From contig SHMW01000013.1 in NCBI GenBank assembly GCA_008080735.1, positions 15,918 through 77,859 of the forward strand: a stretch of DNA of 61,942 nt, written 5' to 3'. This DNA comes from Promethearchaeota archaeon (GTDB lineage: Archaea; Asgardarchaeota; Lokiarchaeia; Sigyniarchaeales; SOKP01). The notes below the pieces were generated by a model, which saw nothing but the letters and a program-made list of their open reading frames with translations, had not been told where the DNA came from and ran no database searches. Position numbers and translations under genes: made by a program. Of this stretch, positions 17,744 through 43,178 are shown in pieces (within the stretch, counting starts at the first letter, position 1; each line of letters begins with the position of its first letter).

Positions 17744-17808
17744 GAAAAATAACACTATCAATGAGCACCCATTACTCATCAGTATTGAGAACTCATTTAT
17801 TATTTTTC
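17744..17808 (-). promoter_or_regulatory. long imperfect RNA hairpin in the vhuD-fdhB intercistronic region
   Basis: Minus strand: GAAAAAUAAUA/UGUUAUUUUUC, AAUGAGU/GCUCAUU, CUCA/UGGG, UACU/AGUA stems closing a GAUG loop. Confidence 0.55.
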
Positions 17809-17847
17809 ACTTGATTTGATACATATTTGTAAATTATTTTAATTAAA

Positions 17848-17918
17848 ATGTGCGCAATGGGGCATCCATTTCTTCAACAAGATTCTCGTTTTTGTAATCT
17901 TGTATCATAAGGGCACAT
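17848..17918 (-). promoter_or_regulatory. SECIS element, eukaryote-like (AUGA...GA kink-turn core)
   Basis: Starts 4 nt after the vhuD stop. Helix I AUGUGC/GCACAU; core AUGAU...UGAA; perfect 8-bp helix II ACAAGAUU/AAUCUUGU; A-rich apical loop ACAAAAACGAG; extra AAUGG/CCAUU hairpin on the 3' side. Confidence 0.8.
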
Positions 17919-17922
17919 ATTC

Positions 17923-18354
17923 TTATTTTTGTGTGTCTATTCGAATAGGATTTGGACCGAGTTCTGCGATCTTTTTATGGAACTTTGTTGCTTCCTTTTG
18001 GAATTTTTGTCCTTCCGCGGCACTGCAATAGAACATATGAATCCGTTCTTTATCTAAACCGATCGAATCGAGCAGTTCCTTGATATACTCAACTTCTCGA
18101 TAGGCAAAATAATTCCCATTTTCATAATCGCATTCGCCGGGGTATCAAGCTGCCACCAGAACACCGTCAGCACCCCGTCCAAACGCGCGCATCACGAGAT
18201 CAGATCCCACTCGTCCAGTACACGGCACTAAAACCGTTCGGATTGAGGATGGATATTGGGCACGGATGGTACCTGCCATATCAGCACCTCCATATCCTCA
18301 TTTCCAACAGAAAAAGCCAATGATCTTGACTTTTCCATTTTCATTTTCAGACAT
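17923..18354 (-). CDS. vhuD: selenocysteine-containing hydrogenase/Hdr-associated [2Fe-2S] subunit VhuD/MvhD (143 aa, 2 Sec)
   Basis: MSENENGKVKIIGFFCWKUGYGGADMAG...VPCTGRV...GADGVLVAAUYPGECDYENGN...SAAEGQKF...LGPNP. UGA at 18298-18300 and 18145-18147 align with Cys in the mvhD at 32756-33220 (CCNWCSY; TGCHIGDC); AGGAGG upstream. Confidence 0.93.
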
Positions 18355-32755: not shown

Positions 32756-33220
32756 TTATTCTTGTTTAACTTGTATTTCGCCTAATTTTTTTGGAAATGG
32801 CGATGGTCCTAAGCTTAAGATGGTATCATTAAATTCACGGATTAATTCAGCAAATTGTTTTCCCTCACTTGCCGATATCCATTCCAAACGAAATCGGGTG
32901 GGTTCGATTCCAATTTTTTTCAATAAGGTTTTCATATGTTCCATGCGTTCTCTAGTTAATTCATTCCCGCTAATATAATGACAATCGCCGATATGACATC
33001 CCGTTACTAATACTCCATCTATTCCGCTTTTGAATGCGTCAAGAATAAATGACGGTTCTACTCTTCCGGAACACATCACTCGAACAATCCGCACACTCGG
33101 GGGATATTGGAAACGAGAAACTCCTGCCAAGTCAGCCCCCGCGTAACTACACCAATTACAACAGAAGACTAATATTTCAGGATTAAATTCCTCGTTCTTT
33201 TTTAATTTAGTTTCAGTCAT
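32756..33220 (-). CDS. mvhD: MvhD [2Fe-2S] subunit (cysteine form)
   Basis: FCCNWCSYAGADLAG, VMCSGRV, GCHIGDCHY, WISASEG. Confidence 0.95.
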   Translation of the reverse strand: MTETKLKKNEEFNPEILVFCCNWCSYAGADLAGVSRFQYPPSVRIVRVMCSGRVEPSFILDAFKSGIDGVLVTGCHIGDCHYISGNELTRERMEHMKTLLKKIGIEPTRFRLEWISASEGKQFAELIREFNDTILSLGPSPFPKKLGEIQVKQE

Positions 33221-39569: not shown

Positions 39570-42500
39570 ATGACTGAAAATCTGCAAGAAAATATAATTG
39601 ATAAATCAAAAGAGTGTCCCTTCTGTGGGAACAATTTAGACTCAAAATTTTCTAAATGTTATAATGTTTATTGCCCCGGGCAAAAATTTACCCGAAACAA
39701 CTGGGTTATATATAGGTTGAATCCAGAACTGGGTATAGGAAAAATTATTAAAGAAATAAAAATTCCCGCTTCCAAATCTCTAGAAGAAGAAGACACCTAT
39801 TTTATTGAGAAATTTAAAGTACAGTTTCAAGATGGTGTAATTAAGATAATTCACCCCGTTGATCTTGTTCACTATATTTTTGATACAAATAAGAAAATCA
39901 AGACAGACGAAGGGATTGGCGTAATTAATTCAGCCGATTTTTCCATGAAAGGGGGAGAAATCTCTTATGAAGTTTTGTTTTCTGATGGTAAAAAGTCTCA
40001 AATGTATGAAAATGAAATCATATCGCCAATTTTTGAAAGTTCTAAAGACCAAATCTTCCAAAAAAAGTTAGTCGCTCCAAAAAAATTTCTCATTAAATAT
40101 TGGGCATCCCTTTTTTATTCATATTATACTTCACACCAAATCAAATGTATCACTAACTCCAGACTTTCATTAATGCCTCATCAAATCAATGTAGCGCATC
40201 GATTATCAGAGAAATCCTTCCCAAGAATGATTCTCGCTGATGAAGTTGGTTTAGGAAAAACAATTGAAGCAGGTATTTATATAAAAGAAATGATGGCACG
40301 GAATTTAGCAGAAAGAATTTTAATCATAACTCCTGCTACCCTTATTAATCAATGGAAATTTGAGTTTTCGAACAAATTTAATATTGATTTTAAAATGTAT
40401 GATGGCAGGAAAATTAAGAAATTAACCAAAAAAGGAAGTCACAAAAGCCCCAATTTTTTAAAAAACCCTTTTTATTATGATAATCTAATCATGTGTTCGC
40501 TTCAATTCGCCCGAAATCCAAAATATATCAAACAATTATCTCAGATTTCTTGGGATATTGTAATTTTTGATGAAGCTCACCATTTAAGAAGGTATTTACT
40601 CAATAAATCAACGGGTAATTATAGAGAGACATTAAATTATAAATTAGCAAAAAATTTAGCAAACACCACAGAATCATTATTATTATTAACCGCAACACCC
40701 TTACAATTGCATTCATTTGAACTTTTCTCATTAATTGAGTTGATTCATCCAGAAGCATTTGAAAATTTTAGTGATTTTGAGCATTTTAGAAAAAATATGC
40801 CATTCATCAATCTTCTCATAAAAAATGTATCTCAAATTGAAAAACTAAACAAATTTGAAGTTAAAACCACGATTAAATTACTTAAAGATCTTGAATATGT
40901 CCCCAGAAATAAATCTTTAAATGCAATTCTCGATTTAATCAAGACTGACCATAAAAAGAAGAAAATAATTAAAGATTTAGAAAAGGAACATACACTTTCA
41001 AAATTCCTTATAAGAAATAGAAAAAAGAATGTAATATCAAAGGATTATATTAATGAACGAATTGTTAAGACAATACTTGTAAAGCCTAGACAAGAAGAAC
41101 TTGATATTTATAATGAAATCCGACTATACCTCGCCAAAATCTATAATATGTCGGGAGATTTCAAACACAGAAATATAGGTCTTGGATTTGTAATCACAAC
41201 CCTTCAAAAACTTTTAACGAGTTCTAAACATGCGTTTCTGAAGAGTCTTGAGCGAAGATTAAAACAGATACAAGGAACAACAAACAGTCTCGATTACCTA
41301 GAAACACTTAAGAGCGAAGATCCCGAATATTTTGAATCTCAATTAGAGGAAGAAAATATTGAAAATGGAACTATTGAATACGATAAGTTATCCGATAAAA
41401 GCATCATAGATTCAGAAAATCAAGAAAAAATACTAATAGAGTTTTATCAAAAATTAAGTAATATTTCTTATGATTCCAAATCGGAGAAGCTTTTAGAGCT
41501 ATTGCAGAAGGTATATGAAAACAATCCGAATGAGAAAATAATCATCTTTACTCAGTTTGTTGATACAATGTCATTTTTAAAACGACGGATAATAAAAGAA
41601 AACTCGGGATTCTTCGTTGAAACTTTTTATGGTGGGAAGAATAAACAAGAAAAAGCAGAAGCAGTCGAGCGTTTTAGAGAGAGTAGTGCTTTTTCAGTAT
41701 TATTATCCACTGAAGTGGGTGGAGAAGGTCGGAATTTTCAATTTTGTAGAACACTAATTAATTATGACCTCCCTTGGAACCCAATGAAATTAGAACAGAG
41801 AATCGGAAGATTGGATAGAATTGGTCAAAAATCAGAGAAAATATTTATTTATAATTTCTTTTTGGAAGGTACCATTGAAACAGATATTATCTATGCGCTT
41901 AATAAACGTATTAATTTATTTCAAGAGTCTATTGGCAAATTAGAACCTATAATTGGGAAGATTGAGAAGAACTTTAAAGAGCTTATATTTACAGAAGATG
42001 ATAATAAACAGAAAAAATTGAGACAATTTAATCGAAATTTGGATGCTCAAATAAAGAAAGCTAATGAGATGGAAATGCAACTAGATGATTTGCTCATAGA
42101 TAAGAAATCATTTCAGATGGATACGCTCATCAAATATAACTCTTGCCAAGATGTGAAACTTAGTCATAATGAATTATTTTACCTTATTCAGAGCTTTTTC
42201 TTATTAGATAATGGGAAATATGGGAGATTTGTGCCGTTTAATAATTCAGTTCATAGATCTACCCTTTCTCCTGAAAATATGATTGATATTGTTCCATCTG
42301 AGAAATTCCTAAAGTATTCAAATAATCTTATTCAGCGGGAATATGAGGGCACATTTGATTTGGAATTGGCTAAAATAAACGAAGAACATGATTTCTTTGC
42401 ACTTGGACACCCACTTATAAACGATATTTTAAAATATGCTAAAAGTGATAATTTTGGTGGAAATTTTACAGTTTTAAGTTTAAAAAGGAAAAGCCTACCT

Positions 42501-43178
42501 AAAGAATTCCAAGAGAAATTAAAAAATATTGAAAATCTATATTTAGGCATCTTAAGAACCAAATTTCAAGGATTTTTAATAGAAGAAAATCTCGTCCCAG
42601 TTATTCTCGATGAAAATGGAAATCAAATTCATCAACTGGAAGATTTAATTTTAGAAATTAAGAATTTTGAGAAATTTTTTCACTTTAGCTCGGATGAAAA
42701 ACGGGATCTAGATGTAAATAAATTCAATCTCAAAGTTTTAACCGAAAGAGTAGAGCAATTGGCCAAAACAATGAATAAAGAATGGAGAAAGGAAATCTTC
42801 CATTTGAATTCAAACATATATCGATTTGAACGAGAAAAAAAGAGAAAGATCTATAATTATAAAAAAGAAATTCTCAAAAGAAAAGTAGAAACTTTGAGGG
42901 ATAAATTAATACGTAAAAAAAGCCAAAGACCTTCAGAACGACAAATCAAGAATATCAACCAGCTAGATGATGAAAAGAAAAAACAAGAACGTCTTAAGAA
43001 AATAGAACAAATAGAAGAAGATATCACCTTTCTTAGAAAGGATATCGACCTGACAAGACGGAAATTAGATGATTTAGAATTTTTTTACGAAGACCAAAAA
43101 AAAGATATGAAGAAGAGAAATGCGCATACATATTTTACTGAATTAATAGGTTTTGCATTAATTAGAGTAATTGATTAG
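39570..43178 (+). CDS. SNF2/RapA-family helicase with N-terminal Zn ribbon
   Basis: LADEVGLGKT, DEAHH, LTATP, YDLPWNPMKLEQRIGRLDRIGQ; CPFC..C....C N-terminus; C-terminal coiled coil. Confidence 0.92.
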   Translation: MTENLQENIIDKSKECPFCGNNLDSKFSKCYNVYCPGQKFTRNNWVIYRLNPELGIGKIIKEIKIPASKSLEEEDTYFIEKFKVQFQDGVIKIIHPVDLVHYIFDTNKKIKTDEGIGVINSADFSMKGGEISYEVLFSDGKKSQMYENEIISPIFESSKDQIFQKKLVAPKKFLIKYWASLFYSYYTSHQIKCITNSRLSLMPHQINVAHRLSEKSFPRMILADEVGLGKTIEAGIYIKEMMARNLAERILIITPATLINQWKFEFSNKFNIDFKMYDGRKIKKLTKKGSHKSPNFLKNPFYYDNLIMCSLQFARNPKYIKQLSQISWDIVIFDEAHHLRRYLLNKSTGNYRETLNYKLAKNLANTTESLLLLTATPLQLHSFELFSLIELIHPEAFENFSDFEHFRKNMPFINLLIKNVSQIEKLNKFEVKTTIKLLKDLEYVPRNKSLNAILDLIKTDHKKKKIIKDLEKEHTLSKFLIRNRKKNVISKDYINERIVKTILVKPRQEELDIYNEIRLYLAKIYNMSGDFKHRNIGLGFVITTLQKLLTSSKHAFLKSLERRLKQIQGTTNSLDYLETLKSEDPEYFESQLEEENIENGTIEYDKLSDKSIIDSENQEKILIEFYQKLSNISYDSKSEKLLELLQKVYENNPNEKIIIFTQFVDTMSFLKRRIIKENSGFFVETFYGGKNKQEKAEAVERFRESSAFSVLLSTEVGGEGRNFQFCRTLINYDLPWNPMKLEQRIGRLDRIGQKSEKIFIYNFFLEGTIETDIIYALNKRINLFQESIGKLEPIIGKIEKNFKELIFTEDDNKQKKLRQFNRNLDAQIKKANEMEMQLDDLLIDKKSFQMDTLIKYNSCQDVKLSHNELFYLIQSFFLLDNGKYGRFVPFNNSVHRSTLSPENMIDIVPSEKFLKYSNNLIQREYEGTFDLELAKINEEHDFFALGHPLINDILKYAKSDNFGGNFTVLSLKRKSLPKEFQEKLKNIENLYLGILRTKFQGFLIEENLVPVILDENGNQIHQLEDLILEIKNFEKFFHFSSDEKRDLDVNKFNLKVLTERVEQLAKTMNKEWRKEIFHLNSNIYRFEREKKRKIYNYKKEILKRKVETLRDKLIRKKSQRPSERQIKNINQLDDEKKKQERLKKIEQIEEDITFLRKDIDLTRRKLDDLEFFYEDQKKDMKKRNAHTYFTELIGFALIRVID

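Follow-up and report, generated by a model that had tools for sequence, protein, structure and literature searches.

The hdrA-vhuD gene pair and its host genome

The window analysed here is a 61.9-kb stretch of DNA from the genome of a Promethearchaeota archaeon, a phylum that the taxonomy places in the kingdom Promethearchaeati. The host genome is a metagenome-assembled genome (MAG) of 4.15 Mb, with 33.6% G+C and an estimated completeness of 93%. On the minus strand of the window, hdrA is followed by vhuD/mvhD, and directly behind the latter gene lies a 71-nt element in the 3' UTR (Table 1). Translated with TGA as U, the HdrA product shows FAD/NAD Rossmann and 4Fe-4S domains in Pfam, and its single in-frame UGA, Sec153 (19726-19724), stands in the context DDCSI-U-ILGP, a canonical Sec site. 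The vhuD gene, which is preceded by a GGAGG ribosome-binding site, starts 19 nt past the hdrA stop and ends with TAA at 17925-17923. The first-pass annotation had called it a Sec-containing vhuD, and indeed its product belongs to the FlpD/VhuD family and its frame contains two in-frame UGAs, Sec19 at 18300-18298 and Sec70 at 18147-18145. The closing helix of the 71-nt element begins 4 nt past the vhuD stop and its AUGA 14 nt past the same stop. All three UGAs of the gene pair fall on Cys/Sec positions. The distance from UGA to the element is about 240 and 390 nt for the two codons of vhuD and about 1.8 kb for that of hdrA.

Table 1. Positions of the genes and of the parts of the 71-nt element in the window
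Feature	Positions	Strand	Basis
hdrA, heterodisulfide reductase subunit A-like, 602 aa	18374..20182	-	Pfam on TGA=U read-through
vhuD/mvhD (FlpD family), 143 aa	17923..18354	-	PF02662 FlpD, E 1.6e-44
Whole predicted SECIS, three-way junction (P1 closing helix, P2 k-turn arm, P3 side hairpin)	17848..17918	-	fold z = -3; 80/80 orthologues
P1 5' strand AUGUGC, pairs with GCACAU 17853-17848	17913..17918	-	P1 95% paired, 81 vhuD elements
Junction strand CCUU	17909..17912	-	covarying pairs to 3' side of GA
AUGA, 5' half of tandem G.A/A.G k-turn core	17905..17908	-	invariant ATGA in 37-core alignment
Upper helix UACAAGAUU/AAUCUUGUU enclosing apical loop	17876..17904	-	covariation at 9/9 positions
3' GA of k-turn core	17874..17875	-	invariant in 37-core alignment
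P3 side hairpin AAUGG-AUGCC-CCAUU	17856..17870	-	AUGG/CCAU 99.7% paired, 81 vhuD elements; RNAalifold
P1 3' strand GCACAU, then UUUU	17848..17853	-	sequence; 81-element pair count

The host genome encodes SepSecS (389 bits). A search with ARAGORN at default settings did not find tRNA-Sec in this 93%-complete MAG and returned 12 tRNAs only; the low count and the missing tRNA-Sec are probably due to tRNA genes that contain introns or were not assembled. Directly downstream of the SepSecS gene on contig C15, and on the same strand, lie two ORFs without a Pfam family (locus L151, 5712-6098 and 6319-7002, both minus strand). Since the main text of Huang 2024 (PMC11227280) describes an Asgard-only hypothetical protein that often adjoins secS, efSec and pstk, both ORFs are candidates for Sec-pathway or SECIS-binding factors.

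The 80 best relatives of VhuD among 185,579 species genomes are all found on archaeal MAG contigs. Most of the contig titles name Promethearchaeota or another Asgard phylum, some read only 'uncultured archaeon', and one refers to an actinobacterial bin. The last-mentioned contig (L041, DATKTW010000168.1), whose bin is named 'Candidatus Nanopelagicaceae bacterium', holds a Sec-vhuD of the Asgard type together with a full SECIS and is probably a mis-binned Asgard contig.

The 71-nt element is predicted to fold into a k-turn within a three-way junction

Read on the minus strand from 17918 to 17848, the element is AUGUGC-CCUU-AUGA-UACAAGAUU-ACAAAAACGAG-AAUCUUGUU-GA-AGA-AAUGG-AUGCC-CCAUU-GC-GCACAU. 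ViennaRNA folds the 71-mer into a closing helix (P1), an upper helix and a side hairpin (P3) with a minimum free energy of -15.6 kcal/mol, which corresponds to z = -3.0 against 200 dinucleotide shuffles, of which three fold equally well. The letters and the hairpins had been given exactly so in the first-pass annotation, which described the element as a SECIS of the eukaryotic type and not of the methanogen GAA/A type. The features of the former, an AUGA..GA core, an upper helix and apical adenines, are all present, and there is no GAA/A motif.

The upper helix UACAAGAUU/AAUCUUGUU consists of a basal U.U and eight Watson-Crick pairs (nine positions with one mismatch), and the apical loop ACAAAAACGAG of 11 nt (17895-17885) is A-rich, beginning with ACAAA and ending with AG. 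By sequence and covariation, the k-turn is laid out as a 2-bp C-stem CU/AG, the bulge UAU, the tandem G.A/A.G and the U.U. In the C-stem, C17911 and U17910 (positions -2b and -1b) pair with G17872 and A17873, and U17909 is the first base of the 3-nt bulge U-A-U. An inspection by eye for kissing between the P3 loop and the apical loop revealed no consistent complementarity.

We scanned the whole window, with filters off, with a covariance model of the SECIS core, referred to below as R1. A single strong match was obtained, at 17871-17911 on the minus strand (51.8 bits, E 3e-11); one SECIS is thus present for the hdrA-vhuD pair, and R1 found no second one in the 61.9 kb. The next match, at 40237-40270 on the plus strand (21.9 bits), lies inside an ORF for a 1202-aa SNF2 helicase (39570-43178) and was rejected as a chance match. 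Across the window Rfam gave no family match at the gathering score, thus the element belongs to a class without a curated model.

The core is conserved behind vhuD orthologues

The absence of the core and helix behind Sec-vhuD of related genomes had been named in the first-pass annotation as the finding that would speak against a SECIS. Both are kept at all 80 loci, and they covary. A strict pattern scan detected the core behind 68 of the 80 vhuD orthologues, and inspection by eye showed that the remaining 12 carry it as well; in 11 of these, two nucleotides bulge from the stem's 3' arm. In one of the 80 orthologues (L007) UUGA replaces AUGA; over 81 vhuD elements the UGA of this motif is invariant and its first A is present in at least 90%.

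Covariation was assessed in an alignment of 37 cores, eight from the host genome and 29 from distinct vhuD orthologues. Double changes were found at all nine positions of the upper stem, where 94% of cells are paired. Covariation scored 0.806 as compared with 0.26 for shuffled alignments, and none of 500 shuffles reached that value. Directly after AUGA, the stem mostly opens with a non-Watson-Crick position. The bulge follows the pattern N-A-U, and the two bases on its 5' side pair with the two bases 3' of GA in 97% of cases, with the types UA26 GC6 UG4 AU1 at -1b/-1n and CG, AU, UA and GC at -2b/-2n. In 34 elements behind genes other than vhuD, the -1b/-1n pair is GC27 AU4 CG1 UA1.

Some orthologues read CUGAUGA at the core, which resembles a C box. 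At two vhuD loci of the same genus (L170 and L172, genus g8) the vhuD stop lies within the 5' arm of the upper stem, so the coding sequence and the SECIS overlap; the genomes of these two loci gave no R1 match at E <= 0.001 among the best 150 candidates scored per genome.

The side hairpin is nearly invariant among vhuD orthologues

The first-pass annotation had expected the side hairpin to create a three-way junction, and in this respect the orthologues agree with it. P3 is present at all 80 vhuD loci, where the flanks of the core follow the scheme AAUGUGUU-nnCUr-[core]-AGAAAUGG-nnGCn-CCAU-n(1-3)-ACACAU. In the alignment of 81 vhuD sequences, 96.5% of the cells of the three-way structure are paired overall. 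The four AUGG/CCAU pairs of P3 are nearly invariant (99.7% paired, with one double and one single change). Both this stem and the GC in its loop stay invariant over the 81 elements, and the adjoining bases of the upper stem and the junction vary freely. Thus the evidence for P3 inside the vhuD group is sequence conservation and not covariation.

P1 shows a few compensatory changes among the 81 elements; its consensus is AUGUGU/ACACAU, and the AUGUGC/GCACAU of the window represents a compensatory change from U-A to C-G. RNAalifold, run on the vhuD alignment with no structure given, predicted the upper helix and P3 and did not call P1.

Elements behind other genes share the same plan

Since P3 is almost invariant among vhuD orthologues, its covariation has to be sought in elements of different genes. 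In the host genome, a pattern scan together with R1 revealed further elements downstream of Prx-like selenoproteins (two), of additional Sec-type vhuD paralogues (three) and of several small ORFs that contain in-frame UGA. Among the relatives, at least about 70 further R1 matches (E <= 0.001) were found in at least 22 of the 40 genomes searched. In this whole-genome search the best 150 first-look candidates per genome were scored, a procedure that missed the host elements on contigs C7, C49 and C87.

These elements follow a shared plan, in which GA is followed by 1-5 nt, a short G-C-rich hairpin, 0-8 nt and a strand complementary to a few nt upstream of AUGA. The side hairpins differ in sequence (CCUU-GCA-AAGG, CCCU-CGCA-AGGG, ACGG-UGCGU-CCGU and GCUCU-AGCGC-AGAGC are examples), and so do the closing helices, such as CCGAAU/AUUCGG, AAUCCC/GGGAUU, GCUAG/CUAGC and AAACUCAAU/AUUGAGUUU. 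An explicit detector, written in Python, found both P3 and P1 in 54 of 72 distinct elements, as compared with 5.8% when both flanks were shuffled, and P3 alone in 94% of the 72 as compared with 28% of shuffles. Such a detector seeks helices by design, a bias that the shuffles calibrate and do not remove; 18 of the 72 elements remained below the combined threshold for P1 and P3. An earlier topology parser, applied to constrained MFE folds, had returned 46 three-way junctions among the 72, which is an undercount because it took the C-stem of 2-3 bp for the closing helix.

As the variable lengths of the junction strands defeat the MAFFT alignment of P1 across genes, we tested this helix by flank swapping. 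Across 49 non-vhuD elements, a 5' flank found a better partner in the 3' flank of its own element than in foreign ones (mean score 13.45 vs 8.84), and none of 5000 permutations was as good. For P3, 34 non-vhuD elements were aligned by MAFFT blind to structure, and its pairs covary through the types CG, GC, AU, UA and UG. The P3 loops of different genes also have a motif in common, since 55 of 70 elements hold G-Y-R there, where 17% would be expected. The upper stems are longer in families that stand further away within the order, and P1 and P3 are still seen in them, with side hairpins such as GCCCUU-GCA-AAGGGU and GCCC-CGCAA-GGGC; R1 matched one of 16 genomes of these families, again with the best 150 candidates per genome scored. 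The side hairpin noticed at the hdrA-vhuD locus is therefore not peculiar to it and is a general feature of such elements.

We also compared vhuD paralogues of the host that differ in their Sec codons. A SECIS is present behind all four Sec-type paralogues (on C13, C42, C49 and C87), while the two vhuD/mvhD paralogues devoid of internal Sec codons have none within 170 nt of their stops. A FlpD/MvhD paralogue used as a negative control lies in the window itself (32795-33199, minus strand; C13:48712-49116); it is of the Cys type, has no UGA, is 41% identical to the Sec-type VhuD and is directly followed by another gene. The paralogue on C46 has a single TGA, which is read as its stop.

On C42, a second hdrA paralogue (L083, 720-2693, minus strand) with four in-frame UGAs precedes a Sec-vhuD, and one SECIS serves both. 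Its P1 (CCUCC/GGAGG) and P3 (CCCU-CGCA-AGGG) are wholly unlike those of the window.

Relation to known SECIS classes and to k-junctions

The existence of a 'eukaryote-like SECIS' in Asgard archaea is already known (PMC4989117, PMC11227280). As described in the main text of Mariotti 2016 (PMC4989117), the lokiSECIS has AUGA, a 9-bp stem, an 11-nt apical loop and GA, rarely AA, after the stem; A is favoured at the first five loop positions, and the loop closes with an ultraconserved G that mostly has an A before it. It is found near the stop codon behind HdrA-VhuD, VhuU and PrxL genes of Lokiarchaeota, and a single copy behind vhuD serves the hdrA-vhuD pair. The element of the window shares each of these features (position, AUGA, GA, a stem of nine positions and a loop of 11 nt). 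This was generalised in the main text of Huang, Xiao and Zhang 2024 (PMC11227280) to an Asgard type I eSECIS-like model with the core GA_[G/A]A, an upper stem of 7-15 bp with at most two mismatches and a loop of 8-20 nt, into which the window's element fits with GA_GA, nine positions including one mismatch, and 11 nt. Between these two descriptions and the element itself we see no difference, and the hosts are Asgard archaea in both cases. Judged by its sequence, the element is thus very probably an ordinary member of the lokiSECIS/type I eSECIS-like class.

The difference lies in the model. The published main texts describe the core, the upper stem, the loop and an unspecified 'internal loop and lower stem', whereas here the 3' side of that loop is a hairpin and two bases on each side of the k-turn are paired. 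In the main texts of the SECIS papers, figures and supplements aside, a side hairpin or a junction is not mentioned, and a full-text literature search for a SECIS with a three-way junction returned nothing relevant. The conserved third arm is therefore a refinement of the published Asgard model that has no description in those main texts. Rare 'eaSECIS-like' structures, located in most cases 3' of the eSECIS-like core, are also reported (Huang 2024, PMC11227280, main text), and we suspect that these are in part the side hairpin P3.

In the sampled Asgard lineages, the SECIS is accordingly a k-turn in a three-way junction and not a two-helix hairpin with an internal loop. As compared with eukaryotic type I SECIS, the upper helix of the window's element is shorter, and the Rfam SECIS models, the eukaryotic families included, gave no covariance-model match even at E <= 10 over 17780-17960. 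The finding bears on the published 'archaea-to-eukaryote SECIS transition' scenario, since in eukaryotic models an internal loop takes the place of the branch helix that the Asgard element has on its 3' strand. Moreover, search models with P1 and P3 built in should pick out Asgard selenoprotein genes with greater specificity.

The euryarchaeal (methanogen) SECIS is also an archaeal 3' UTR element which serves vhuD and hdrA orthologues, and in the main text of PMC4989117 the vhuD SECIS of Methanococcales are described as carrying AUGA and GAC/AAC on the flanks of the main stem as well. However, the methanogen element has an asymmetric GAA_A bulge between a G-C-rich lower stem and three consecutive G-C pairs (PMC11881835), whereas that of the window has neither the GAA/A bulge nor the G-C clamps, its stems being A/U-rich and its P3 having two G-C pairs. 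The idea that P3 and P1 are left over from a methanogen GAA_A SECIS was considered and dropped, because Mariotti's description has AUGA..GA around the methanogen main stem; most P3 hairpins are also without a preceding GAA.

A further relative in shape is the k-junction (TPP riboswitch and DUF-3268; Wang 2014, PMC4005666; Li 2023, PMC10573300), which likewise places a tandem-G.A k-turn in a three-way junction with the extra helix on the non-bulged strand. The third helix of a k-junction, which is coaxial with the C helix, emerges from the n strand straight across from the bulge through a 2-nt connector; in the Asgard SECIS, on the other hand, the branch comes 1-4 nt beyond one or two canonical pairs (-1b/-1n, -2b/-2n).

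Possible role of the side hairpin in UGA recoding

On the basis of these sequences, the SECIS in the 3' UTR would direct three upstream UGAs, two in vhuD and one in hdrA, to be read as selenocysteine. A k-turn-binding factor might recognise the core and, where ribosomes pause at UGA, bring in archaeal EFSec together with Sec-tRNASec. Eukaryotic type I SECIS are bound by SBP2. As the published SECIS papers report that an SBP2 homologue is absent from Lokiarchaeota and other Asgard genomes, the candidates for such a factor would be an L7Ae-family protein or another Asgard protein. P1 and P3 together would fix the geometry of the k-turn, and P3, through the recurrent G-Y-R of its loop, might add another contact by which the SECIS is told apart from the numerous other k-turns of an archaeal cell.

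P3 as a recognition site is something that we purely infer, and its being the specificity determinant of the Asgard SECIS, a dock for the factor that stands in for SBP2 or for archaeal EFSec, is a tentative idea, possible and rather doubtful. If it holds, it would explain how a generic k-turn of the L7Ae type is singled out for UGA recoding, and also the failure of a lokiarchaeal SECIS in a methanogen, reported for Methanococcus maripaludis (PMC11881835). The same paper reports that archaeal SelB does not bind its cognate SECIS. In any case, a conserved and sequence-constrained third arm offers a handle on SECIS recognition in archaea, where no SBP2 is known.

It is also quite possible, though short of probable, that the SECIS is real and that P1 and P3 serve just as a structural scaffold or 3'-end module, with P3 read by no factor. 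The two helices would then hold the k-turn arm and protect the end of the transcript beside an oligo-U terminator. P1 behaves as a pure helix should, with sequences that vary freely from gene to gene; the UUUU after P1 in the window, and a run of five or more U within 20 nt after P1 in 18 of 54 elements, would put the junction at the transcript end, and riboswitch k-junctions are known to act architecturally (PMC10573300). P3, however, does not behave in this way: the invariance of its AUGG/CCAU stem and loop GC in the 81 vhuD elements amid varying neighbours, along with the G-Y-R shared by loops of unrelated genes, points to a constraint on sequence beyond what a scaffold needs.

It seems to us highly improbable that an A/U-rich 3' UTR folds into the side hairpin by chance and that the functional SECIS is AUGA, stem, loop and GA only. 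The single sequence would allow it, given the three shuffles that fold as well as the element does, but P3 recurs at every one of the vhuD loci and in far more related elements than in their shuffled counterparts, covaries in an alignment blind to structure, and is made of other sequences in the distant families.

The least probable reading, which we consider to be hardly credible, is that a different k-turn RNA, such as a C/D-box-like sRNA, an L7Ae regulatory site, or a methanogen-type or bacterial-type SECIS, happens to stand behind vhuD and has no part in UGA recoding. In its favour are AUGA..GA, which marks k-turns in general, and the C-box-like CUGAUGA of some orthologues. Yet elements of the same type stand at the 3' end of the host's ORFs with in-frame UGA and are missing behind the two Sec-less vhuD paralogues. 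The locus has neither a D box nor a guide region, and it lacks the GAA/A bulge and three G-C pairs of methanogens. A bacterial SECIS would follow directly on the UGAs, whereas this element lies in the 3' UTR, and no Rfam family matches it.

Other UGA-containing ORFs with a SECIS

Several of the elements lie behind genes other than hdrA and vhuD. On contig C10 (L082, 33300-37500) three SECIS are found within 1.5 kb, at 223-263, 1004-1045 and 1685-1725 of the locus, minus strand. Two of them stand behind Prx-like (AhpC/TSA) selenoproteins, one of these proteins having three UGAs (FFRGTWUGHU), and one stands behind an ORF of roughly 50 aa, CxxC...CPLU, which is zinc-ribbon-like and belongs to no family. 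At L085 (3143-3355, plus strand) a hydrophobic protein of 71 aa with an in-frame UGA (…GEPSGUACITF…) has a SECIS directly behind it, as does a 129-aa protein with U48 at L084 (2996-3382, plus strand). Neither protein has a Pfam family, and both are possible unlisted selenoproteins of Asgard archaea.
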